Source of the DNA: an uncultured Spirochaetota bacterium
GTDB taxonomy: Bacteria > Spirochaetota > Brevinematia > Brevinematales > JAOACQ01
Reading direction: 5' to 3'
Assembly: GCA_963783575.1 (NCBI GenBank)
Contig: CAWAOD010000005.1
Coordinates: 586,189-650,188 of the forward strand
DNA length: 64,000 nucleotides
Numbering within the stretch: position 1 is the first letter of the stretch; each line of letters starts with the position of its first letter. The notes under the pieces are model-generated. The model was not told the origin of the DNA. It did no database searches and worked only from the letters and a program-made list of their open reading frames with translations. The translations under genes and the position numbers were made by a program. Of the stretch, positions 18,852 to 37,746 are shown in pieces.

Positions 18852-19910
18852 TTATTTGCTGAACCTTGCCCTTTCATCAAGAGGCACAAGCAGTATTACA
18901 ATTCTCCTGTTCTGTGCCCTGCCTTCCTCAGTATCATTTGAAGCGATCGGGTTGTATTTCCCATACCCCGTCGCTTTCATAAGTGAAGGATTTACACCCT
19001 GCGATTCCAGGAACCGGACAATGGTCGTTGCCCTGGCTGTTGACAATTCCCAGTTGGATGGATATTTCCATTTATATTTATCCGCAATCGGCACATTGTC
19101 AGTGTATCCTTCCACCCTGATCTGTTTATCTGTGATGTTCTTCAAATCTTTTGAAATTCTCTGCAGTACTTTTTCTCCGTTTTTCTTGATATCGGCTCTC
19201 CCCGAATCAAAGAATATTTTATCGAGAAAATCGATGCTGAGCTGGTCGCTCAACTGTTTGATCTTGACATCGCCGTTAGCGATTTCATCTTTAAATTCCG
19301 CCGTTAGATTGCTTGATGTTGCTGTTAATCTTGCTATTTCGGCGTCCTTCTGCGCCGTGATATTGGAATTTTCAGTCGAAATGGATTCCAATCTTTTTTC
19401 CAGCCCTGCTATCTCATTGTCTTTTGAATTGATCTGATCCTGCAGGGCTTTCATCTTCTGATCGTTATCCTTCATGGTTGCATTCAGGCTGTCGATCTGT
19501 TTTCCGAGTACGCCTTTTTCGTTATTAACAGTGTTTTTCATACTTAAATAATCGTTACTCAGCTTTGATATTGTTTTCATTAAAGCATTATTCTGAACCT
19601 GCAGCGTGCCAAGCTGCTCCTTATCCAGATCCCTGTCTTTATTCAGGCTGTCAATTTCAGCAGCCGAATTGGAATAATCATCCTGAAGCTTGGCAAGCTG
19701 ATCTTTAAGCCCGGCGTTCTGAATCAGTGAATTAGAATAGTCGCTCTGAAGACCGGCAAGCTTCGAGCTCAGGTCCTTGTTCTGTGAGGCCAGGCTGGCG
19801 TTTTCTTCCTGCAGTTTTGCCGATTCATCAGGCTTCACAGCGGCCTTTGAACATCCTATAAATAGTATAAGTATTAAAGTTACAATAATAATATACAATG
19901 ATCTTATCAT
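18852..19910 (-). CDS. OmpA/MotB C-terminal domain lipoprotein with long coiled coil
   Basis: Lipobox FIGC; heptad-rich middle; FFDSG, VEGYTDN, NWELSTARA, NRRI. Confidence 0.9.
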   Translation of the reverse strand: MIRSLYIIIVTLILILFIGCSKAAVKPDESAKLQEENASLASQNKDLSSKLAGLQSDYSNSLIQNAGLKDQLAKLQDDYSNSAAEIDSLNKDRDLDKEQLGTLQVQNNALMKTISKLSNDYLSMKNTVNNEKGVLGKQIDSLNATMKDNDQKMKALQDQINSKDNEIAGLEKRLESISTENSNITAQKDAEIARLTATSSNLTAEFKDEIANGDVKIKQLSDQLSIDFLDKIFFDSGRADIKKNGEKVLQRISKDLKNITDKQIRVEGYTDNVPIADKYKWKYPSNWELSTARATTIVRFLESQGVNPSLMKATGYGKYNPIASNDTEEGRAQNRRIVILLVPLDERARFSK

Positions 19911-19993
19911 ATAAACCTCCTATGATAAAAATTTCATATAAAAATCATGTTTTGTTCATTATAATCTCATTTCCAAATTAAATATTGTTCCAA

Positions 19994-20836
19994 TTATTTA
20001 TTCTCGATCTCACTCAATTGATAAACCTCTTTATCAACTATTACAATCTGTATCCTTCTGTTCCTTGACTTTCCTTCATCTGTATCATTTGGAGCAATCG
20101 GCCTGTATTCACTGTAAGAGATTGCTGAAAGTCCGCTGGGATTCAGGCCCTCTTTTTCCTGCAGGTACCTTACAACATTAATAGCCCTTGCCGCGCCTAA
20201 TTCCCAGTTTGTAGGATATTTAGCCCTCAGTTCCGATCTTATCGGCACATTGTCAGTATGCCCTTCTATTCTTATGACCTTACCGGTCAGCTGTTTGAAA
20301 ACAGGGGCAATTTTATGAAGAAATGTTTCCCCGGCTGGTTTTATGACCGCTTCACCGGAATCAAAAAATATCTTTTCTTTAATGTAAACTGTAATAGCGT
20401 TATTTATCACATCAAGCTGGATATCTCCGGAGGCTATTTCATCCTTCATTTTATTTTTCAGGTCATTGTAAACAACATCTCCGCGGTAGGCTTTCTTCAT
20501 TAAAATATCTTTTTCCGCCTGATCCGCGTCTTTTAACCTTTTGATCTGGTCAATAAGAGAAGCATTAGCTTTTGACAACCTTTCCAGATCAGCGGCAGCA
20601 GCCCCTGACTTGGTAAGCCGGTCAAGCTCAGCCTGGCTGTTGCTCAGATCAGTTTCAAGTTTTTGAGTGTAAGCCTCGAGATCGGCGATCCTTTCCTGCG
20701 CCTTTGTGTCCTCATTTGCCGCAGGCGGATTTGCGGTTACAACCGGTTTAACCTCGGGTTTCTGCGTTCCGCATCCTGCGAATGTCAGTATTCCTATAAT
20801 ACCGGCAACTAGAACTAAATACTTCTTCATAATCAA
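19994..20836 (-). CDS. OmpA/MotB C-terminal domain lipoprotein
   Basis: Lipobox FAGC; IEGHTDN, NWELGAARA, NRRI. Confidence 0.9.
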   Translation of the reverse strand: MIMKKYLVLVAGIIGILTFAGCGTQKPEVKPVVTANPPAANEDTKAQERIADLEAYTQKLETDLSNSQAELDRLTKSGAAAADLERLSKANASLIDQIKRLKDADQAEKDILMKKAYRGDVVYNDLKNKMKDEIASGDIQLDVINNAITVYIKEKIFFDSGEAVIKPAGETFLHKIAPVFKQLTGKVIRIEGHTDNVPIRSELRAKYPTNWELGAARAINVVRYLQEKEGLNPSGLSAISYSEYRPIAPNDTDEGKSRNRRIQIVIVDKEVYQLSEIENK

Positions 20837-21026
20837 TTACCTCCAAATTATTTTTGTATTATTTGATTATATTCTTTATCAGTTTCCATAGATTACTGCC
20901 TTTCCAATAATCTATTTTTAATATTATTAAAAACTTGTCAGAAAGGCAAGTAAGTAATATGAAATATAATATATTTATCCATCCCTTAATATCTGATAAT
21001 AAATAATTGATAATCATAACAGCTCC

Positions 21027-21179
21027 TCAATGAATCAATACATTTCTTATAATATACAGTATTCCAATTATTCCTATTAAAAATAAAATTGAATTCAGCA
21101 GGAAATAATCTCGAAGAATCATAGCAATAGTTAATAAGAATACAGATAAGATTAAAATAATAATTTTATTCGGATTCAT
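21027..21179 (-). CDS. Small two-TM hypothetical protein
   Basis: MNPNKIIILILSV... two hydrophobic segments; AGG upstream; very AT-rich so may be spurious. Confidence 0.35.
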   Translation of the reverse strand: MNPNKIIILILSVFLLTIAMILRDYFLLNSILFLIGIIGILYIIRNVLIH

Positions 21180-21350
21180 CTTAAAAACCTTTTTTATTTT
21201 AATACGATAAAAAAAGTTAATTAAAAAGAAATAAATCGACATCAGGTTAAATCACTGAATTTTGAAAATTCAGTATCGGGAAAATTCACTTAATTTAATT
21301 TCAAACATCAGGGATTTCCTCTGATAGCAGTAGAAATTTATTATTATGAT

Positions 21351-21379
21351 TTGACGGAAATAATTACTATGCTTATAAT
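21351..21379 (+). promoter_or_regulatory. Sigma70-type promoter
   Basis: TTGACG-N17-TATAAT upstream of 21494. Confidence 0.6.
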
Positions 21380-21493
21380 TGACACGAATATGACTGATTA
21401 ATAAAATTATTATGATAATAATTATTCCTTATTTTATTTGATTTGATTTTTTAGAAGAATCTTATTAATATAAAAATTGACGGAGGCGGGTTT

Positions 21494-22429
21494 ATGAAAA
21501 ATATTATTATTCCATCTATTATAATAATTGTCATGAGTTTTGCCGGATGCGGCGTTAAACCTGAAGAATACGCCTTGGCAACCAATGATATCCGGATTCT
21601 GGAAGGCAAAAATCAGAATCTTGAATCCGATTACAGCAATAAAATTATGGAATTTGATAATTTAAGCAATGCTTATGCTTTTCTGTCAAATAATCCGCCG
21701 TATATAACTGATATAATTATCTCCAATACTATCCAGACTGATTTTGCGACCAATGTGGAAATCTCAAATATTTATTTCACCAATATAGAAGTGTTGACCA
21801 ACACTGCTATTGAAACCAATAACGACGAACTTAATAAAACAATTGCCGGATTAATGGTTGAAAATTCATCAATATCAAATGAACTGGAACTCCTAAAGAT
21901 CAAATATAGCAATGATACCAAAACATTAGAAGAAAAATCGGACCGTACTGAAAAAATTTATCAGGATCTTAAAGCTTCCTTCAAAAGGGATATTGATGCA
22001 GGAAACTTGAAAATAAGTAAAATTTATAATCTGATCTGTTTTTCAATTCAGGAAGAGGTGTTCTTTGATTCAGGTAAGGCTGCCGTTAAATCGAATGGCC
22101 GTGTATTCCTGAAAAAACTGGGTAAAATTTTATATAAAATGAATGATAAATTCTTTTTTGTCGAAGGACATACGGATAATGTTCCGATCGGCGACGCGGC
22201 TTTTACATCAAACTGGGATCTTGGTGCGGCTAGGGCAATCAGCGTTGTCCAATATCTTCAGGAAATTACCGGCATTCCTGGTAGCCGGCTTGCTGTCGTG
22301 AGTTATTCAAAATACAGGCCGTTAGCATCTAATATCACTGAATCCGGAAAAGCTAAAAACCGACGTATTCAGATAAGTATCGTTGATAAAACGGAATATG
22401 ACATGACAAGGATGGACCATTCAGAGTAA
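21494..22429 (+). CDS. OmpA/MotB C-terminal domain lipoprotein with Thr/Ser-Asn-rich stalk
   Basis: Lipobox FAGC; VEGHTDN, NWDLGAARA, NRRI. Confidence 0.9.
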   Translation: MKNIIIPSIIIIVMSFAGCGVKPEEYALATNDIRILEGKNQNLESDYSNKIMEFDNLSNAYAFLSNNPPYITDIIISNTIQTDFATNVEISNIYFTNIEVLTNTAIETNNDELNKTIAGLMVENSSISNELELLKIKYSNDTKTLEEKSDRTEKIYQDLKASFKRDIDAGNLKISKIYNLICFSIQEEVFFDSGKAAVKSNGRVFLKKLGKILYKMNDKFFFVEGHTDNVPIGDAAFTSNWDLGAARAISVVQYLQEITGIPGSRLAVVSYSKYRPLASNITESGKAKNRRIQISIVDKTEYDMTRMDHSE

Positions 22430-30115: not shown

Positions 30116-31003
30116 TTAATTTGTAGATACAACTACAGAATAATTTGAAATAACTGTAATTCCGGCGCCGATAGCGACTTCAGTACCAAGCTCAACAGTA
30201 CATACATAATCAGAGGGATTCAGTACTCCCTTATTAGTAAGATACGACAGAAAAGGCGTGATATCGAAAGCTGCCGCGTTAAAAATCTGAGTACCGGACC
30301 CCGCGCTGAATGCGGCGTAAATCCAATAGTGGGGCGATCCCCCCTGGTTTGTAGCATAATAATAATTAAAGTTGTAACCGTTGGCGCTCAGTGAACCGGT
30401 AGGACTAATCCCGTCGGGGATAGCGTTAGCACTTGCGAGCCATATCATGACTTCACATTTGATATCCGTAGATGTGAATGCCGCCGGGTTGCTGTTATTG
30501 GATATTATCCAGATGTCGTATGCAAGGTCGTAAGTGTTTCCTCCGAAAGCCTGTGAAGTTGTCTGGCTGATATTAAATGAGGAAGTCAACTGATGGCCGG
30601 CAATTATGAAGGGAAAGTCCATCGGGTGGTTTGTTAAGGGTGCCCAGGGACTATCTCCGCAGAAAACTTCAGGATATGCGAGTACTGTATACTGATTGTT
30701 ATTATTCCAGGACCACTGCCAGCCGAAGAAACCGGTTCCGTTGGTGCTGCCGTAAAAGATGGTTTCACTGAATGGCGTCTTGGCGTACTGAACATTCCAT
30801 TCGTTATTATTTACCTGATATCGGCTGTTAATGATTATTTGATCGTTATTATTGGTTTTGAAAGCGGTAACTCCGGCTGGCAGGCCTCCGGAAGTCGAAT
30901 TGGTTCCTCCACCTCCTGAACCTGGTTGAACCGTGGAACAGGCGTATAAAATAAAAAAGGATATTATTATAATATACAATAAAAGAGGGTGTATTCTTTT
31001 CAT
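30116..31003 (-). CDS. GH12-like glycoside hydrolase lipoprotein
   Basis: Lipobox LYAC; NNEW, AYPE, DLAYDIW, EVMIW (nucleophile), GTE (acid/base). Confidence 0.8.
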   Translation of the reverse strand: MKRIHPLLLYIIIISFFILYACSTVQPGSGGGGTNSTSGGLPAGVTAFKTNNNDQIIINSRYQVNNNEWNVQYAKTPFSETIFYGSTNGTGFFGWQWSWNNNNQYTVLAYPEVFCGDSPWAPLTNHPMDFPFIIAGHQLTSSFNISQTTSQAFGGNTYDLAYDIWIISNNSNPAAFTSTDIKCEVMIWLASANAIPDGISPTGSLSANGYNFNYYYATNQGGSPHYWIYAAFSAGSGTQIFNAAAFDITPFLSYLTNKGVLNPSDYVCTVELGTEVAIGAGITVISNYSVVVSTN

Positions 31004-31133: not shown

Positions 31134-31163
31134 TTGACTTTATGACGGGTATGGTTATATAAT
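31134..31163 (+). promoter_or_regulatory. Sigma70-type promoter for the amr operon
   Basis: TTGACT-N18-TATAAT. Confidence 0.6.
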
Positions 31164-31206: not shown

Positions 31207-32742
31207 ATGAAAAATAAAATCAACAGATTCTGGTTTTTATCAGCATTAATTATTTATGCCCTGTTCAGCTGCAGTTTAAAGGGGGATTACAGGCATGCTG
31301 CCAATGCCGGATCTTTTTATCCCTCCGATAAGATAGAGCTGAGGAAGATGCTGGATTATTTCTTCAGCCATGTGACTGTTAATACAGATGTGAAACCTGA
31401 CGCAATTATCGTACCGCATGCGGGCTATGAATACAGCGGCGGAACGGCCGCGTATGCTTATAATACGCTTAAAGGGAAGAATATTAAAAGGGTCATACTG
31501 CTGGCGACATCGCATTATGCCTATGTGAACGGGATTGTAATCAATGAGAAGGCTTATGAGACCCCTCTCGGGGTTTATAATATGGACAGACAGGCAATTG
31601 ATATATTAAAAAGGGAGGATTTCGATCATGTTAAAAATGAGATTGAATCCACCCGTGAGCACAGTGATGAAGTCCAGATCCCTTTTCTGCAGGAGGTTCT
31701 GCCGGATGCTAAACTTGTACCTCTTATCGTTGGAGAATTATTTGAAGATGAATATACAAATGCCGCAAAGGCATTGAATAAAATTATTGATGATAAAACA
31801 GTAATCGTGGTGAGCTCTGATTTTACCCATTACGGTGAACGATTTGAATATACGCCGGACTTCGGCGGGAAAAGTATAAAAGACGGTGTGACTGAACTGG
31901 ATGGAAAAGCCATCGGGTTAATAACTAACCGCGATTACAGGGGATTTGTGGAATATATTAAAAAAGTCAGCGCAACTATCTGCGGCGCTCATCCGATAGC
32001 CCTGCTTTTGCGGATTCTGGAGGAAAGAAATTATCCCTTCAAAGGCAATCTGCTGAAATATACTATGAGCGGTGAATTGACAGGGGATTATTCAAATAAT
32101 GTGAGCTATTCCGCCATCCTTTTCGGGGATGTCAGGTCTATTCAGGATATAAAGTCCGATAAGCCGTCGATAGACCGGAAGCTGATCGGCGATGATGACG
32201 AAAAAACCCTGTTAAAGCTTTCAAGGAACGTGCTGGAAACTTTTGTGAAAAAAAACAGCTCGGATTTTCCGCCGGATAAACTGAAGGATTATAATATTAC
32301 TGAAAATCTGAGTCAGAAACTGGGCGTATTCGTTACCCTGACAAAGAAGGGTGATTTGAGAGGCTGTATAGGATACATTACGGGGCGGGATGAGCTTTAT
32401 AGGGCTGTAATTGCCAATACCATAAATGCGGCCGCGAATGACCCCCGTTTTCCGCCTGTCGCTGGCGATGAATTGAAAAATATCAGTATAGAAATATCCG
32501 TTATGACACCGATGGTAAGGATCAATTCACCGGAAGAAATAAGGATCGGAAGGGATGGGCTTTATCTGGAAAATAACGGAAATGCGGGGGTCTTTCTGCC
32601 GCAGGTCCCTCTGGAACAGAACTGGGACAGAAAAACATATCTTGAGGAACTCGGGATGAAAGCAGGTCTTACTGCAGATGCCTATAAGGATAGAAATACG
32701 GTTCTTTACCGTTTTTCTGCACAGGTCTTCGGTGAAAAATGA
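31207..32742 (+). CDS. amrB: AmmeMemoRadiSam protein B (Memo) / protein A (AMMECR1) fusion with lipoprotein signal
   Basis: AGSFYP, VPHAGYEYSG, EHSDEVQIPFLQ, SSDFTHYG, TICG (Memo); GVFVTL, LRGCIG, DPRF, FLPQV (AMMECR1); N-terminal LFSC lipobox. Confidence 0.93.
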   Translation: MKNKINRFWFLSALIIYALFSCSLKGDYRHAANAGSFYPSDKIELRKMLDYFFSHVTVNTDVKPDAIIVPHAGYEYSGGTAAYAYNTLKGKNIKRVILLATSHYAYVNGIVINEKAYETPLGVYNMDRQAIDILKREDFDHVKNEIESTREHSDEVQIPFLQEVLPDAKLVPLIVGELFEDEYTNAAKALNKIIDDKTVIVVSSDFTHYGERFEYTPDFGGKSIKDGVTELDGKAIGLITNRDYRGFVEYIKKVSATICGAHPIALLLRILEERNYPFKGNLLKYTMSGELTGDYSNNVSYSAILFGDVRSIQDIKSDKPSIDRKLIGDDDEKTLLKLSRNVLETFVKKNSSDFPPDKLKDYNITENLSQKLGVFVTLTKKGDLRGCIGYITGRDELYRAVIANTINAAANDPRFPPVAGDELKNISIEISVMTPMVRINSPEEIRIGRDGLYLENNGNAGVFLPQVPLEQNWDRKTYLEELGMKAGLTADAYKDRNTVLYRFSAQVFGEK

Positions 32743-33809
32743 ACTTCTTCAGGAAAAACGGTTCTTCTATCATTTTACTGATTTGCTTAACGGCTTTGTC
32801 GTTCACGCTTTATCTGTACATGTGGCAGTTATTGGTTCCATCGATTCTATGGTCGATGTTTATCGGCTTTATCCACAACAGGATTCTCTCGACAGGAAAG
32901 GTTTATTCCTACCGCTCAATATATTTTATAATACTGGCGGTTTCCTTTATTGCAGGTTTCCGCCTGACTTCCGTTGAGGTTACTCAGACACCTTACTGCC
33001 ATATAGGTATAGCGGGAAACTTAATTCATACTTTATATAACCAGATTCTGGCTATTACAAATTCATCCTGGGGCAGGTTCGGAGCTTTAAGCGCAGGCCT
33101 GCTCTGGCTGGCTGTTATTTTAATTAACGGCGGCGGTTTCTGCAGTTATGCCTGCTTTTTCGGGGGAATAGACGAGGGTTTTTCCGGAATCCTGAAAAAG
33201 CCGCTGATAAGGCTTCCGCAAACAAAAAGGTTCCGTGAGTTTCAGATCGCATCCCTTTTATTTTTCGCTTTTATCTCATTTACATCAGTTGAGGCTGTTT
33301 TCTGTACCTGGCTTTGTCCATTGAAAGTTACAAACCATATCCTGAACCCGGAAGCCCCGGCCTGGCTGATTCAAAACATCCTTTATATTTCAACCGGCGC
33401 GGTATTTCTTGTTGGCCTCCCTCTGCTGACAAAAAAAAGGACCTTCTGCAGTATCATATGCCCGTTCGGGGCACTGCCGCCTTTATTGTACCGGATAAAT
33501 CCCTATAAAATGAGCGTCGATGATACAAAATGCACGGGATGCAAAAAGTGCCTTGCGGCATGTCCGTCGTTTGCGATAGAAGAAGCCGGTGATAAGGTAA
33601 AGATAAACCGGTACTGTACTCTCTGCGGAAAATGTTTGGAAACCTGCTCCGGCGGGGCTATTAAGACTACGCTGTTCCATAAAAGGGAATCTTTTTTAAT
33701 GGCCACGGTATCTCTGGCTATCGGCGGCGGAATATCGCTGTTTATTTTTCCGGCAGCGGTCATGAATCTTGTGGAATGGACTATAAAGCTGGCAGGATGG
33801 AAATTTTAA
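32739..33809 (+). CDS. Membrane polyferredoxin (NapH/MauN-like 4Fe-4S binding protein)
   Basis: Multiple TMs; CSYACFFG, CTWLCP, CSIICP; two CxxCxxCxxxC ferredoxin motifs. Confidence 0.88.
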   Translation: MNFFRKNGSSIILLICLTALSFTLYLYMWQLLVPSILWSMFIGFIHNRILSTGKVYSYRSIYFIILAVSFIAGFRLTSVEVTQTPYCHIGIAGNLIHTLYNQILAITNSSWGRFGALSAGLLWLAVILINGGGFCSYACFFGGIDEGFSGILKKPLIRLPQTKRFREFQIASLLFFAFISFTSVEAVFCTWLCPLKVTNHILNPEAPAWLIQNILYISTGAVFLVGLPLLTKKRTFCSIICPFGALPPLLYRINPYKMSVDDTKCTGCKKCLAACPSFAIEEAGDKVKINRYCTLCGKCLETCSGGAIKTTLFHKRESFLMATVSLAIGGGISLFIFPAAVMNLVEWTIKLAGWKF

Positions 33810-33833
33810 AAATAGTAATAGGTGTAAGAACTT

Positions 33834-34442
33834 ATGATAAAAGAAACCTGGCAGATTGTCATTGAGGGTTTTGTGCTCGGGCTTTCCACGGGCGGGTATT
33901 GTTTTATGACATGCGTTCCGTTTTTCATGCCTTATATCCTGGCGGCAAGGCGGGCATCGGCATTTTTAAGCTTTATCGCCGGCAGGTTTCTGGCTTATGT
34001 AGCCTTCGCAATTATAGCAGGCTTCATTGGGGTTTACCTTACAGGGGTTTATAAAAATATATCCGCTGTCCTTTTGATAATCACATCCCTTATTCTTATG
34101 TTTTTTTCTATATTCAACCTGTTTCCGAAAAATCCGTTCTGCAGGCGTTGGATTGAAAGCGGTCGTCTGAACAGCTATCCATTTATTGCCGGCGTTCTGC
34201 TGGGCTTGAACCTCTGCCCGCCGTTTCTTACCGGAATGGCCAGGGTTATTCAGATGGGAAGCGTATGGAAAAGCGTTTTTTTCTTCATCAGCTTTTTCAT
34301 GGCCACAACACTGTTCCTGGTTCCGATGGTTATTCCGGTTCCTTTTTTGAAAGGGGGTTTTTTTAAGAGGCTGGGTTCCTATCTCGGAATACTGGCCGGA
34401 ATATGGTTTTTAATTCAGGGAATAATTTCCTGCTTCACGTAG
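33834..34442 (+). CDS. DsbD_2 / TauE-SafE-like membrane protein
   Basis: GLSTGGYCFMTC, GRFLAY, GLNLCPP membrane Cys motifs. Confidence 0.75.
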   Translation: MIKETWQIVIEGFVLGLSTGGYCFMTCVPFFMPYILAARRASAFLSFIAGRFLAYVAFAIIAGFIGVYLTGVYKNISAVLLIITSLILMFFSIFNLFPKNPFCRRWIESGRLNSYPFIAGVLLGLNLCPPFLTGMARVIQMGSVWKSVFFFISFFMATTLFLVPMVIPVPFLKGGFFKRLGSYLGILAGIWFLIQGIISCFT

Positions 34443-34452
34443 GAGTTTTTCA

Positions 34453-36610
34453 ATGATGCTTTTTGTCCTGGGGTTTGTTTCTGTGATCACACAGTCTGTA
34501 TTATTGAAGGAACTGGCTGTTCTTTTCCGGAATAATGAGATTGTGATAGGAATTCTTTTTTTCTGGTGGATGGCCGGGTCTGGTATAGGCAGCGTACTTT
34601 ATAAAAATCTGCCGGATAAATTTAAACGTTCCGGATATCCGGCGCTTGTCATTGCGGTAATACTGCAGATCATAATGATTTTTGCGGTCCGTATTACCTC
34701 CGGATTTTATTATATCAGGGCGGAATTGGATTTGATTGTTTTGTTTTTGTTATCCGCGGTGTTTCTGCTGCCCGTATCTTTATTAATCGGCCTTGCGTTT
34801 CCTGCGCTGACCGGCAGTTCTTCAACGGGCAGAACAACAATCTCATATTTTCTGGAGACATCCGGCTTTTTCGTTGGAGGCATTATATTTTCCCTCCTGA
34901 TTACCGGTAATTTTGACGCTCTTCCGGCTTCCGGTATGGTTTTGCTGGTTTGTATTATATCTGTATTTCTGTCCCTGAATCGGAAAATTCAGAGAAGAGA
35001 AGCCGTTCTTTTATCGGTGATGTTTTTTCTGTGTTTTATTTTTATAGTTTTTAATAGAAATTTTATTGACTTTTCCAGGCAGATGGAATGGAGGGGCGGA
35101 CTGTTAATAGAAAGCCGGGAATCGAAATATGGAAATATGGCCCTGCTGGATGACCGGGGGAAAACCCTTTATTATAACGGCAAAGTCCTTGCTTCTGAAG
35201 CGTACAATCTGACCGAGGAGAAAGCTCATATACCCGCAATGATTAAAGGAAGGCTGGAAAATATTCTTATCATCGGGTATGCCGAGCCCGGTCTTATTAC
35301 AGAATTGGTTAAATATAAACCTCAATCAATTGTAAATGTATTCCTGGATGAAAGACTGGCTGATTTTTCCCAAAAATATTACGGAGAAGAAAATCTTTTA
35401 AAAAATATATCCATGGACCCCATTATCTGGGTCAAATCGCATCAGGAGAAGTTTGAACTCATCATTCTCAATTTGCCTTTCCCGGATACACTTGCCGGCA
35501 GCCGTTTTTATTCTCTTTCTTTTTTAAAACAATTGAAAAATTGTCTTTCCCTGGCCGGTTTACTTGCCATGTCATTTTCCTATGAGGAGAATTACCTGCC
35601 GGAAGAAACCCTGAACAATTTCAGCCTGCTGTATAATAAATTAAAAAACGTTTTTCTTGAAACCGAAATGCTGCCAATGGAACACTTTTTTCTTCTGGCC
35701 TCCGATGCTAAAATGACAGCATCAGAGAATTTCCTTGAGAAATCTGTTTCCAGGAGTTTCAGGGAGATTCAATCTCAAAAAGTTAAACCCGTCTTATATC
35801 AGTTATTATTTGAATGAAAAAAGGACCGCCGGCATAACCGGATTGATTACAAACCGCCCATCTCAGAATGAGTCCGGGAATAATTTTGATTTCCGTTTTT
35901 ATCGGAATACCATGAAAAAATGGCTCAAAATAAGTTTTCAAGACAGGTGGATTATCATTTTTGTCATCCTTCTTGCTGCCGGTTATTCGGTATACCGGGG
36001 CAGGAGATATTTGGCAGGTTTTTTCCTGTCCGGAAAATTGGGAATAATCATATTTTTCACTGCCTTTTGCGGAATTGCCGGGGAGCTTCTTCTCATTTAT
36101 CTCTATCAATATCTATATGGTTATATTTATTCTGTTTTCGCACTGCTGATAGCTGCATTTATGCTGGGAATGAGCCTGGGCGCCGGATGGATGGCCGGGA
36201 AAAAAAAGGTCAATACGGGGGATAATGTGCCGATTATTTTATTTATAACCTGGCTTATTTTAACCGGCGCCTATTTTCTTTTAAATCAAAATATTACAGA
36301 ATTTGTACCGGGAATGCCAATATTTTTTCTTCTTTTTACAGACGGTTTTCTCAATGGGTGGATTTTTAATCATTATGCCGGCATGGAGGAAATAAAAGCG
36401 GACGCCGCTGTGACAGCCGCCAGGACATACTCATACGACCTTTATGGTTCGGCGGCCGGGTCTATTCTCAGCGCTTCGGTATTGTTCCCGTATTTAGGGT
36501 TTACCGGCAGTATTACAGTTATGGCGATAATTTTGCTTTTATTGCTTTTTTTATTAATAATATATGAAAAGGAGCATGAATGGAAAAAAATTCAAAAAAC
36601 TTATCATTAA
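34453..36610 (+). CDS. Membrane-embedded spermidine-synthase-like (fused TM / SAM-fold / TM) protein, split by a 1-nt frameshift near 35735-35785
   Basis: QSVLLKEL...NE, ESKYGN, EEKAH, ILIIG, LPFP...RFYS; second ORF carries C-terminal TM block (ELLLIYLYQ..YG, YSYDLYGS). Removing one A from the A5 at 35777-35781 fuses them. Confidence 0.8.
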
Positions 36611-37746
36611 TGGAAATATTTTCATTTACCATATCGTTCCTGGTTTTAACCCTCTTTTTGGCTTTATTTTTCTTCCAGAAGACTCCTTTGATATTTTCTT
36701 CCGTTACCGCTAATAATTTATATGCCAGGGAGGCCATGTACTGGGAAAGGGCGGATTCGGGAGTGAAATGCAATCTATGTCCGTCATACTGCTATCTGAC
36801 AGAAGGGGCCAAAGGTAAGTGCAAAGTCCGGATGAATAAGGACAGCACGCTTTATACTGAAGTTTATGGACAACCGGCCGCTGTCCATATCGATCCGATA
36901 GAAAAAAAACCGGTTTACCATATGCTCCCGGGGAGCATGATCTTTTCCATTGCGACGGTCGGGTGCCCCTTGAAATGCTCATTCTGCCAGAACTGGACTC
37001 TTTCGCAGGCCTATCCGGAGGAACTGAAAGAGGGTAATAATGGAACCGGCATGATTATCAGTCCGGAGCAGATCGTTCAGTCGGCCATACAGAACGGCAA
37101 TAAATCCATAGCCTTTACTTATAGCGAACCGGTAATTTACTATGAGTACATGCTGGATATCGCAAAGCTCGCTAAACAATATGGCCTCCGGAATGTAATG
37201 GTCACGTCCGGGTATTTCAATCCGGAGCCTATCAGTAACATTGCGCCGTATTTTGATGTCATCAAGGTTGACCTTAAAGGGTTCAGTGAAAAATTCTATA
37301 CTGAAGAGGTCGGCGGCCATCTGACCAATGTCCTGAAGGTCTTGAAAATTATTAAGGAAATGAATAAGCTGGTTGAAATAGTGAATCTTGTAATACCGCA
37401 AAGGAACGACAGCGATGATGATTTTAAAAGTCTCTGCCTGTGGGTTATGGACAGCCTGGGGCCTGATACTCCGCTTTTCTTCACCCGCTTTATGCCTGAT
37501 TACAAGCTGAACAACCTTCCGCCGACACCGCTGGAAACGCTTCTTCGGGCTAAATCCATTGCTGATAAAACGGGCCTGCACTTTGTATATATCGGCAATG
37601 CGCCGGAGGCGAAGGGGGAAAACACCTATTGCCCGGATTGTCATACTCTTTTAATAGAAAGGGAAGGGTACTGGATAAAAAAGAATATTATTAAACATGG
37701 GTGCTGTCCGGTCTGCGGAAGATCAATTCCGGGGATCTGGGAGTAG
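36580..37746 (+). CDS. amrS: AmmeMemoRadiSam radical SAM enzyme with N-terminal TM anchor
   Basis: CNLCP..C, DPIEKKP, CPLKCSFCQN (CxxxCxxC), FTYSEP, YIGN, C-terminal CPDC/CPVC. Confidence 0.95.
   Translation: MEKNSKNLSLMEIFSFTISFLVLTLFLALFFFQKTPLIFSSVTANNLYAREAMYWERADSGVKCNLCPSYCYLTEGAKGKCKVRMNKDSTLYTEVYGQPAAVHIDPIEKKPVYHMLPGSMIFSIATVGCPLKCSFCQNWTLSQAYPEELKEGNNGTGMIISPEQIVQSAIQNGNKSIAFTYSEPVIYYEYMLDIAKLAKQYGLRNVMVTSGYFNPEPISNIAPYFDVIKVDLKGFSEKFYTEEVGGHLTNVLKVLKIIKEMNKLVEIVNLVIPQRNDSDDDFKSLCLWVMDSLGPDTPLFFTRFMPDYKLNNLPPTPLETLLRAKSIADKTGLHFVYIGNAPEAKGENTYCPDCHTLLIEREGYWIKKNIIKHGCCPVCGRSIPGIWE

Follow-up and report, generated by a model that had tools for sequence, protein, structure and literature searches.

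The AmmeMemoRadiSam proteins, i.e., the Memo-family protein AmrB, the AMMECR1-family protein AmrA and the radical S-adenosylmethionine (SAM) enzyme AmrS, have to our knowledge no known reaction, either as a trio or as the human proteins MEMO1 and AMMECR1. In a 64,000-nucleotide (nt) stretch of an uncultured Spirochaetota genome (contig CAWAOD010000005.1, positions 586,189 to 650,188; hereafter the window) we recovered a five-gene operon that encodes this trio with a lipoprotein leader or membrane anchor, together with three membrane proteins: a NapH-like polyferredoxin, a DsbD_2 protein and a transporter-like protein with a spermidine synthase (SpeE)-type, SAM-fold domain. Sequence comparison establishes the protein families, shows that catalytic motifs are intact, that export or anchor sequences are conserved and that the genes are linked, and also indicates a genuine, multi-phylum variant of this function-less system. 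To it the locus adds what its sequences mark as an anchored AmrS clade lacking the twin-arginine translocation (Tat) motif and associated with a particular NapH-like/DsbD_2 module, in which a metal site is predicted on the outer side. On balance, we lean towards an AmmeMemoRadiSam system whose site of action would be the outer side of the cytoplasmic membrane; its SAM would come from the transporter-fold protein and its electrons from the two redox proteins.

Organization of the operon

Below, G000 is the genome of the window itself, G011 a relative of the same family and G855 a genome from another phylum, whereas L-numbered loci are stretches fetched from other genomes for neighborhood comparison. 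The operon comprises the following features, open reading frames being abbreviated as ORFs, transmembrane as TM, amino acids as aa and the major facilitator superfamily as MFS.

31134–31163 (+), candidate sigma-70-like promoter TTGACT-18-TATAAT, the best site with 11/12 matches (consensus match only)
31207–32742 (+), amrB-amrA fusion (Memo + AMMECR1), 511 aa; TIGR04336/TIGR04335 above cut-off
31207–31272 (+), predicted lipoprotein signal peptide ending ALFS-C22 (sequence pattern; G011 equivalent AVFG-C)
32739–33809 (+), NapH-family (Fer4_5 + Fer4) membrane polyferredoxin, 356 aa; family scan, model and conservation
33834–34442 (+), DsbD_2 (PF13386, CcdA-like) membrane protein, 202 aa; family scan, with C23, C27, C103 and C128 conserved
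34453–35817 (+), N-terminal part of the MFS-fold/SpeE-fold protein (7 TM and most of the SAM-fold domain); Spermine_synth match, out of frame after about 35765
35755–35770 (+), one-base frameshift by comparison with G011, likely an assembly error
35735–36610 (+), C-terminal part of the same protein in another frame (end of the SAM-fold domain and 7 TM); 53% identity to the C-terminal part in G011
36580–37746 (+), amrS, radical-SAM enzyme of 388 aa, CxxxCxxC at 129/133/136; TIGR04337
36616–36672 (+), predicted AmrS N-terminal TM anchor, aa 13–31, without a twin-arginine motif (hydropathy/pattern)

The original prediction of co-oriented, tightly packed genes behind a promoter holds, the promoter as a consensus match. 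On the plus strand the order is amrB-A, NapH-like, DsbD_2, SAM-fold membrane gene and amrS; the first two ORFs share 4 nt, the next gaps measure 24 and 10 nt, and amrS starts 31 nt inside the last membrane ORF. Promoter-like sites numbered 27 against 16.6 expected, the best one lying upstream of amrB-A, and a Shine-Dalgarno-like run is found 5–6 nt upstream of both the amrB-A and the amrS start. No RNA data set was listed among the public runs matching the window. The family assignments of the original prediction were borne out as well by family scans (Memo + AMMECR1, Fer4_5 + Fer4, DsbD_2, Spermine_synth, TIGR04337), and so were the lipobox, the CxxxC and CPP motifs of the DsbD_2 protein, the ILIIGYAEPG loop and an AmrS helix without a twin arginine (RR), all of which are present in the sequence. 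The core proteins, encoded in a single operon with intact motifs, score above all three curated cut-offs (AmrA, TIGR04335, 165.5 vs 99 bits; AmrB, TIGR04336, 223.4 vs 26; AmrS, TIGR04337, 361.1 vs 220), i.e., they belong to AmmeMemoRadiSam. All five genes recur in the same order in G011, and within 7 kb in G855, where AmrS begins with RRRFL and a helix and the genome encodes tatC.

Export and anchor sequences of the core proteins

Signals were scored by hydropathy and patterns. The AmrB-A leader matches the lipoprotein (signal peptidase II) pattern, with a basic n-region, an h-region and the lipobox cysteine, and S-C is the most frequent ending among the 153 lipobox-like ORFs of G000. Among the best 120 AmrB-A homologues, 90 carry a hydrophobic leader (followed by Cys in 65) and 17 lack one; the remainder comprises 12 sequences that are too short and one that is partial. 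Behind the leader, the Memo triad H71/H103/C259 and the AMMECR1 residues C387 and D412 are invariant in 45/45 rows; the triad aligns with the metal ligands H49/H81/C244 of MEMO1, its iron triad (PMC11081632), and the RGChG and DxRa motifs described for AMMECR1 (PMC2034487) are kept.

Leaders of both AmrB-A and AmrS are retained in G011. The best 120 AmrS homologues include 97 with an N-terminal helix lacking RR, eight with an RR pattern (P0143 doubtful), nine unclassified and six short, and in 75 of the 97 non-RR anchors Lys and Arg are more numerous on the N-terminal than on the C-terminal side (equal in 11, fewer in 11). The RR motif, absent from AmrS of the window and of G011, does occur in G855 and elsewhere in the anchored clade. 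A tree of AmrS catalytic domains (120 rows; about half of the Tat rows randomly dropped, cut rows and one mis-called ORF excluded) separates 18 signal-less rows from 102 signal-bearing or split ones (SH-aLRT 97). The window AmrS falls inside a 46-row anchored clade (support 100) in which RR and RR-less anchors are interleaved, its own subclade consisting of 19 rows, none with RR. In a 43-row subset, a grouping of this subclade with the signal-less forms was rejected by the approximately unbiased test (p-AU 0.026, obtained with a quick method for a group named after the first tree had been seen). By sequence, the window AmrS nests in an apparently exported clade in which the remaining members bear signals of the Tat or Sec type. 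Ordinary Sec-type leaders occur on AmrS of L184, L185, L298 and L299, those of the last two looking cleavable; tatC was not found in either of the two testable genomes of this kind (completeness unstated), whereas 5/5 genomes of the same phylum with Tat-AmrS possess it.

Two other accounts were rejected. A host devoid of Tat is contradicted by the tatC genes of G000 and G011 (tatC is likewise found in 25/29 genomes tested), and an AmrS start downstream of the signal, named in the original prediction as a point on which it could fail, was sought at M54 and dismissed because G011 has Leu at that position.

Further AmrB-A and AmrS forms were seen along the way. G000 contains a second AmrB-A fusion (C18:33300-34859, minus strand, 58% identical), with leader and intact catalytic motifs, preceded by a lipoprotein-like ORF and with no amrS in the listed 16 kb, as well as a dispersed signal-less set: amrB (C9:102059-102772, two tblastn pieces, possibly also broken), amrA (C13:7963-8514) and amrS (C5:348188-349201). 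A scan of G000 with our own pattern gave about one clear Tat leader only. At L309 (3889-4200, minus strand) AmrS lacks its N-terminus, and the first strand motif that it is missing is found at the end of a small ORF upstream that encodes a TM helix, so that the enzyme is split; AmrS without N-terminus also occurs at L171, L195, L211, L307, L308 and L310. A Tat-AmrS at L312 (5724-6956, minus strand) has CxxCH immediately ahead of the catalytic domain, where electrons might enter through haem or a metal, and at L441 (3463-8183) two tandem Tat-leader AmrS-like genes adjoin a SAM-fold membrane gene in the absence of amrB/A. A scan of viral contigs with AmrS gave no match.

Partner genes of exported amr loci

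The fetched loci contain 171 amrB ORFs, of which 104 with at least 2.5 kb on both sides were counted, one partial case being set aside. Within 6 kb of the 72 leader-bearing amrB genes we found the SAM-fold gene 31 times, DUF362 29 times, a NapH-family gene 16 times and DsbD_2 four times; within 6 kb of the 31 leader-less amrB genes each of the four was found 0 times. The conserved partner of the exported core is the SAM-fold membrane protein. The expected co-occurrence of accessory genes with signal-bearing amr genes thus stood only in part: such genes accompany signal-bearing and not signal-less loci and the full set recurs in G011 and G855, but most exported loci are without NapH or DsbD_2.

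DsbD_2 adjoins 4/5 non-RR AmrS against 0/50 Tat AmrS, in a classification whose RR pattern left several clear Tat leaders in the class without signal. A bond exclusive to RR-less AmrS is weakened because G855 pairs DsbD_2 with an RR-bearing AmrS. In nine more AmrS loci of the G855 class, where most leaders are of the RR type, the fetched stretches of 7–18 kb contained neither amrB nor a NapH-like or DsbD_2 gene.

A predicted transporter fold with a probably outward SAM-fold domain

The prediction of one large protein with a SAM-fold domain between TM blocks was not borne out in the window, where two overlapping ORFs lie in different frames; G011 has a single intact protein of about 719 aa, to which both halves are 53–54% identical. 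The model of the G011 orthologue (predicted local distance difference test, pLDDT, 85; predicted template modelling score 0.88) shows 7 TM, a soluble domain and 7 TM. The soluble domain has the SpeE fold (vs 1uir: Z 26.2, root-mean-square deviation 2.7, 262 residues aligned), and the membrane part, as modelled (residues 1–719), is a two-bundle MFS fold (SV2A, Z 23.1, 331 aligned, deviation 4.3; EfpA, Z 19.8). Lys/Arg-rich loops after TM2, 6, 8 and 10 place the SAM-fold domain outside. Conserved polar residues in the membrane (Q14, E29, E138, Q557 and D674) are suggestive of transport only.

Conservation was assessed in 40 full-length homologues of 48, with positions taken from the alignment to 3anx/1uir and with residue roles that we presume from SpeE (catalytic Asp, GGGDG loop, adenine-pocket Asp, ribose-binding acid). 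A His is retained in 37/40, the adenine-pocket Asp in 39/40, and a PxP..NRFY segment is conserved, whereas the catalytic Asp is found in 4/40 and a GGGDG-type loop in 0/40 (the window has GYAEPG and LNLPFP). Because these two elements are lost, aminopropyl transfer is disfavored, and the originally predicted handling of aminopropyl groups finds no support; the modelled domain would rather fit an adenosyl-ligand carrier or SAM delivery. That it nevertheless catalyses the transfer of aminopropyl, aminocarboxypropyl or methyl groups to a lipid-linked substrate seems to us quite unlikely: the fold extends across the whole domain, the residues just named are retained and speD occurs in 23/34 other genomes picked from amr loci, yet the SAM-fold proteins miss every SpeE equivalog cut-off, the aminopropyl-transfer elements are gone, and speD was not found in G000 (89.85% complete), an absence that the 23/34 count makes weak. 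Methyl or aminocarboxypropyl transfer stays conceivable. The fused MFS/spermidine synthase model NF037959 was not listed for the SAM-fold proteins of the window or G011.

The NapH-like and DsbD_2 proteins

The polyferredoxin is NapH-like (Fer4_5, PF12801, 44.1 vs 22 bits, in two stretches; several TM helices in the model) and falls short of the curated NapH models (TIGR02163, 44.1 vs 213 bits; PRK09477, 48.1 vs 234). At 356 aa it also lacks the internal RR before the last TM and the exported iron-sulfur (Fe-S) domain of dual Sec-Tat polyferredoxins, features seen in 510-aa partners at Tat-AmrS loci and on G000 contig C9. Its model (pLDDT 87) and loop charges place C135/C139, C237/C241 and the 2x[4Fe-4S] domain inside, in line with the cytoplasmic Fe-S clusters of NapH (PMC5449189, PMC5928378), and C87, H88, C189 and C193 on the outer face. 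All 120 homologues have C189/C193, and 60 of the top 61 keep C87/H88; we suggest that an outer Cys3His metal site may complete an electron wire. Fold searches with this model returned only the ferredoxin domain or generic helical bundles (Z ≤ 6.7) and no solved structure matching the membrane part, and a scan of genome contigs with the polyferredoxin returned mostly generic ferredoxins. The DsbD_2 protein (PF13386, 58 vs 24.9 bits; Atlas neighbors at 0.95) has conserved cysteines at C23, C27, C103 and C128, with Cys-Pro type motifs in two helices.

Exported amr loci carry three NapH-family designs and signal-less loci none: the window type with DsbD_2; a 510-aa NapH-NapG-type polyferredoxin with internal RR and outer Fe-S domain beside a Tat-signal DUF362 protein, of a family for which Tat export of the C-terminal domain has been demonstrated (PMC5449189); and FMN_bind + Fer4_5, which forms a fusion with the SAM-fold protein at L168 and also at L172, where the end of the contig truncates it. 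A homologue was scored as sharing a contig when its contig was exactly equal in size to that of an AmrB-A or anchored-AmrS match; this applied to 14/30 close NapH-like homologues (contigs of at least 5 kb) and 0/40 distant ones, with 0.2 expected by chance. The NapH-like/DsbD_2 pair is a portable module that tracks the anchored AmrS clade yet is also found without amr genes.

A related arrangement lies on G000 contig C9 (556090-559407, minus strand), where tatC immediately precedes a DUF362 gene with a Tat signal and a gene for a dual Sec-Tat-type polyferredoxin of 523 aa; the latter pair is the one found beside Tat-AmrS in another phylum.

Proposed mechanism

The three requirements of radical-SAM chemistry, i.e., SAM, an electron of low potential and an Fe-S cluster, are all cytoplasmic goods, and this one 6.5-kb unit offers candidates for supplying each of them. 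What follows is our inference as to location, transport, electron path and substrate. AmrB-A would be a lipoprotein of the outer face, and the AmrS helix would hold the enzyme N-in/C-out. The 14-TM MFS-fold carrier, its outward SpeE-fold domain retaining the adenine-pocket Asp and not the aminopropyl-transfer residues, would export SAM, present it to AmrS and perhaps retrieve 5'-deoxyadenosine. The NapH-like protein would take electrons from its cytoplasmic Fe-S clusters to the outer Cys3His site, from which they would reach the cluster of AmrS, while DsbD_2 would keep reduced the many exported catalytic and metal-binding cysteines. AmrS would then generate a radical on the substrate, and an envelope-side modification would be completed by the cysteine of AmrA together with the metal site of AmrB; the weakest step is the substrate, which we guess to be a lipid or glycan bearing a group with a nucleoside or a ring. 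A more specific version strikes us as doubtful: AmrS would have dropped Tat, be threaded unfolded through Sec and receive its cluster outside, with NapH-like/DsbD_2 as the line for both electrons and cluster and the MFS/SpeE-fold protein as SAM exporter.

Points against the proposal and alternative readings

The envelope location, part of the original prediction, is supported by inference because signals are conserved across phyla, AmrS occupies the tree position described and the SAM-fold domain points outward. A number of observations nevertheless weigh against our proposal, the first of them concerning AmrS. The charge bias of the window anchor is weak (2 K + 2 E before, 1 K after), AmrS is without RR although the genome has tatC, and a Sec-routed AmrS needs Fe-S assembly outside, for which we know of no machinery. 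Such assembly becomes unnecessary if the RR-less AmrS is instead N-out/C-in, i.e., cytoplasmic and fed by the ferredoxin domain of the NapH-like protein with its clusters on that side, the MFS protein flipping the product to AmrB-A outside. The anchor charges and the complete lack of RR in the 19-row subclade speak for this split topology, which we still hold to be unlikely, given that the window AmrS is nested among Tat- and Sec-signal enzymes, that G855 has an equal gene set with an RRRFL-bearing AmrS, that 75/97 anchors have an N-in bias and that AmrS of L298 and L299 bears Sec leaders that look cleavable.

The redox pair raises a second group of objections. A NapH-family gene is missing within 6 kb at 56/72 leader-bearing amrB loci (the SAM-fold gene at 41/72), and the locus counts are not independent because many loci are kin. 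Matched contigs show the same contig, not adjacency, and only 8/14 are under 30 kb. DsbD_2 stands beside 12/15 distant NapH-like genes with no amr gene within 3.3 kb, and in G000 itself there is a second DsbD_2 + NapH-like pair without amr genes (C14:113593-118889). The pair could thus be a general thiol reductant guarding the exported AmrA C387 and AmrB C259, the AmrS cluster not being its target. The amr-free loci, often near other secreted proteins, and the exported amr loci that do without the pair agree with this, as does the passage of electrons in the DsbD family via cysteine pairs to thioredoxin-like clients (PMC8238504). No thioredoxin gene is found in the operon, however, and exported amr loci have three unrelated NapH-family designs, with two instances of fusion to the SAM-fold protein, whereas signal-less loci have none, so that a role in thiol reduction only appears rather improbable. 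Because of these three architectures, the originally proposed electron supply is supported by inference for the NapH family, while its assignment to the pair is tempered by the amr-free loci.

The SAM-fold protein contributes the remaining two points: the ribose-position acid is E/D in only 23/40 homologues, being Phe in the window and G011, and the gene is frameshifted in the assembly of the window, with one extra base relative to G011. Were the frameshift genuine, the operon would be decaying and the system inactive in this host, whatever its role elsewhere. A patchy spread (a SAM-fold gene match in 1/11 same-family genomes, namely G011) and a GC content at third codon positions of 0.41–0.53 in the six operon ORFs, against a genome median of 0.375, are compatible with decay. 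We consider it very unlikely, as the remaining genes are intact, the catalytic residues invariant and both SAM-fold halves as similar to the G011 protein as stated above. An assembly error is the likely cause because 4/58 G000 genes testable against proteins from fetched loci, secY included, change frame. One public run shares 6% of words with the window, and its three pieces of 99%+ stop at 35639, before the frameshift site.

The other frame changes in G000 are at C6:22715-24017, C13:113590-114703 and C9:364095-365847, i.e., secY and, by eye, metX-like and NAD-synthetase-like genes. The C14 pair is flanked by a secreted protein, an outer-membrane-like protein and a membrane-anchored protein of about 510 aa, and cassettes resembling it were seen in several other genomes of the phylum (L413, L416, L418, L419 and L421).

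Relation to known systems

AmmeMemoRadiSam with its human counterparts MEMO1 and AMMECR1 shares families, metal site and RGChG/DxRa motifs with the operon, which differs by export or anchor sequences and three membrane partners. A published guess for Memo/AMMECR1 is RNA base modification (PMC2034487, PMC4075521), a misfit here because an outer-face location is predicted. Full-text searches gave no description of exported AmmeMemoRadiSam systems, although Burroughs et al. 2019 (PMC6664185), on Memo-AMMECR1 systems, or its supplement, outside the search, may mention exported forms.

With NapH, NosR, PceC and PFD (PMC8238504, PMC5449189, PMC5928378) the window polyferredoxin shares Fer4_5, two CX3C motifs and a C-terminal 2x[4Fe-4S] domain, and, like NapH-like extracytosolic electron-transfer systems, it is modular, with varied extracytosolic clients (PMC8238504). 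Unlike them, it has no FMN-binding domain and no Tat-exported Fe-S domain, adds the four predicted outer ligands and a DsbD_2 partner, and its client would be a radical-SAM enzyme instead of a respiratory reductase. Compared with CcdA/DsbD, with which PF13386 and the Cys-Pro motifs in two helices are shared, the DsbD_2 protein has CxxxC and two further conserved cysteines, and a polyferredoxin partner in place of an operon thioredoxin. SpeE and the fused MFS/spermidine synthases (NF037959, PRK03612) share the SpeE fold after a 7-TM block; in the window protein a second 7-TM block completes the MFS fold, the domain is predicted outside, and catalytic Asp and GGGDG are lost. The HXS antiphage system likewise ties radical-SAM enzymes to a periplasmic function, but there the signal peptide is confined to the effector, whose export follows its maturation (PMC13128918), whereas here the enzyme itself is anchored.

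If the proposal is true, radical chemistry normally restricted to the cytoplasm would take place at the outer membrane face, with a SAM exporter, a new class of clients for NapH-family wires and possibly a Tat-independent export of Fe-S enzymes, and the function of Memo/AMMECR1 in the exported branch would be narrowed away from RNA modification.

Other features of the window

A divergent GH12 glycoside hydrolase with a lipoprotein-like leader (30116-31003, minus strand) lies upstream of the operon and is absent from the G011 locus. At 18852-22429, three ORFs in a row have coiled-coil N-termini and, by eye, OmpA/MotB-like C-terminal segments.

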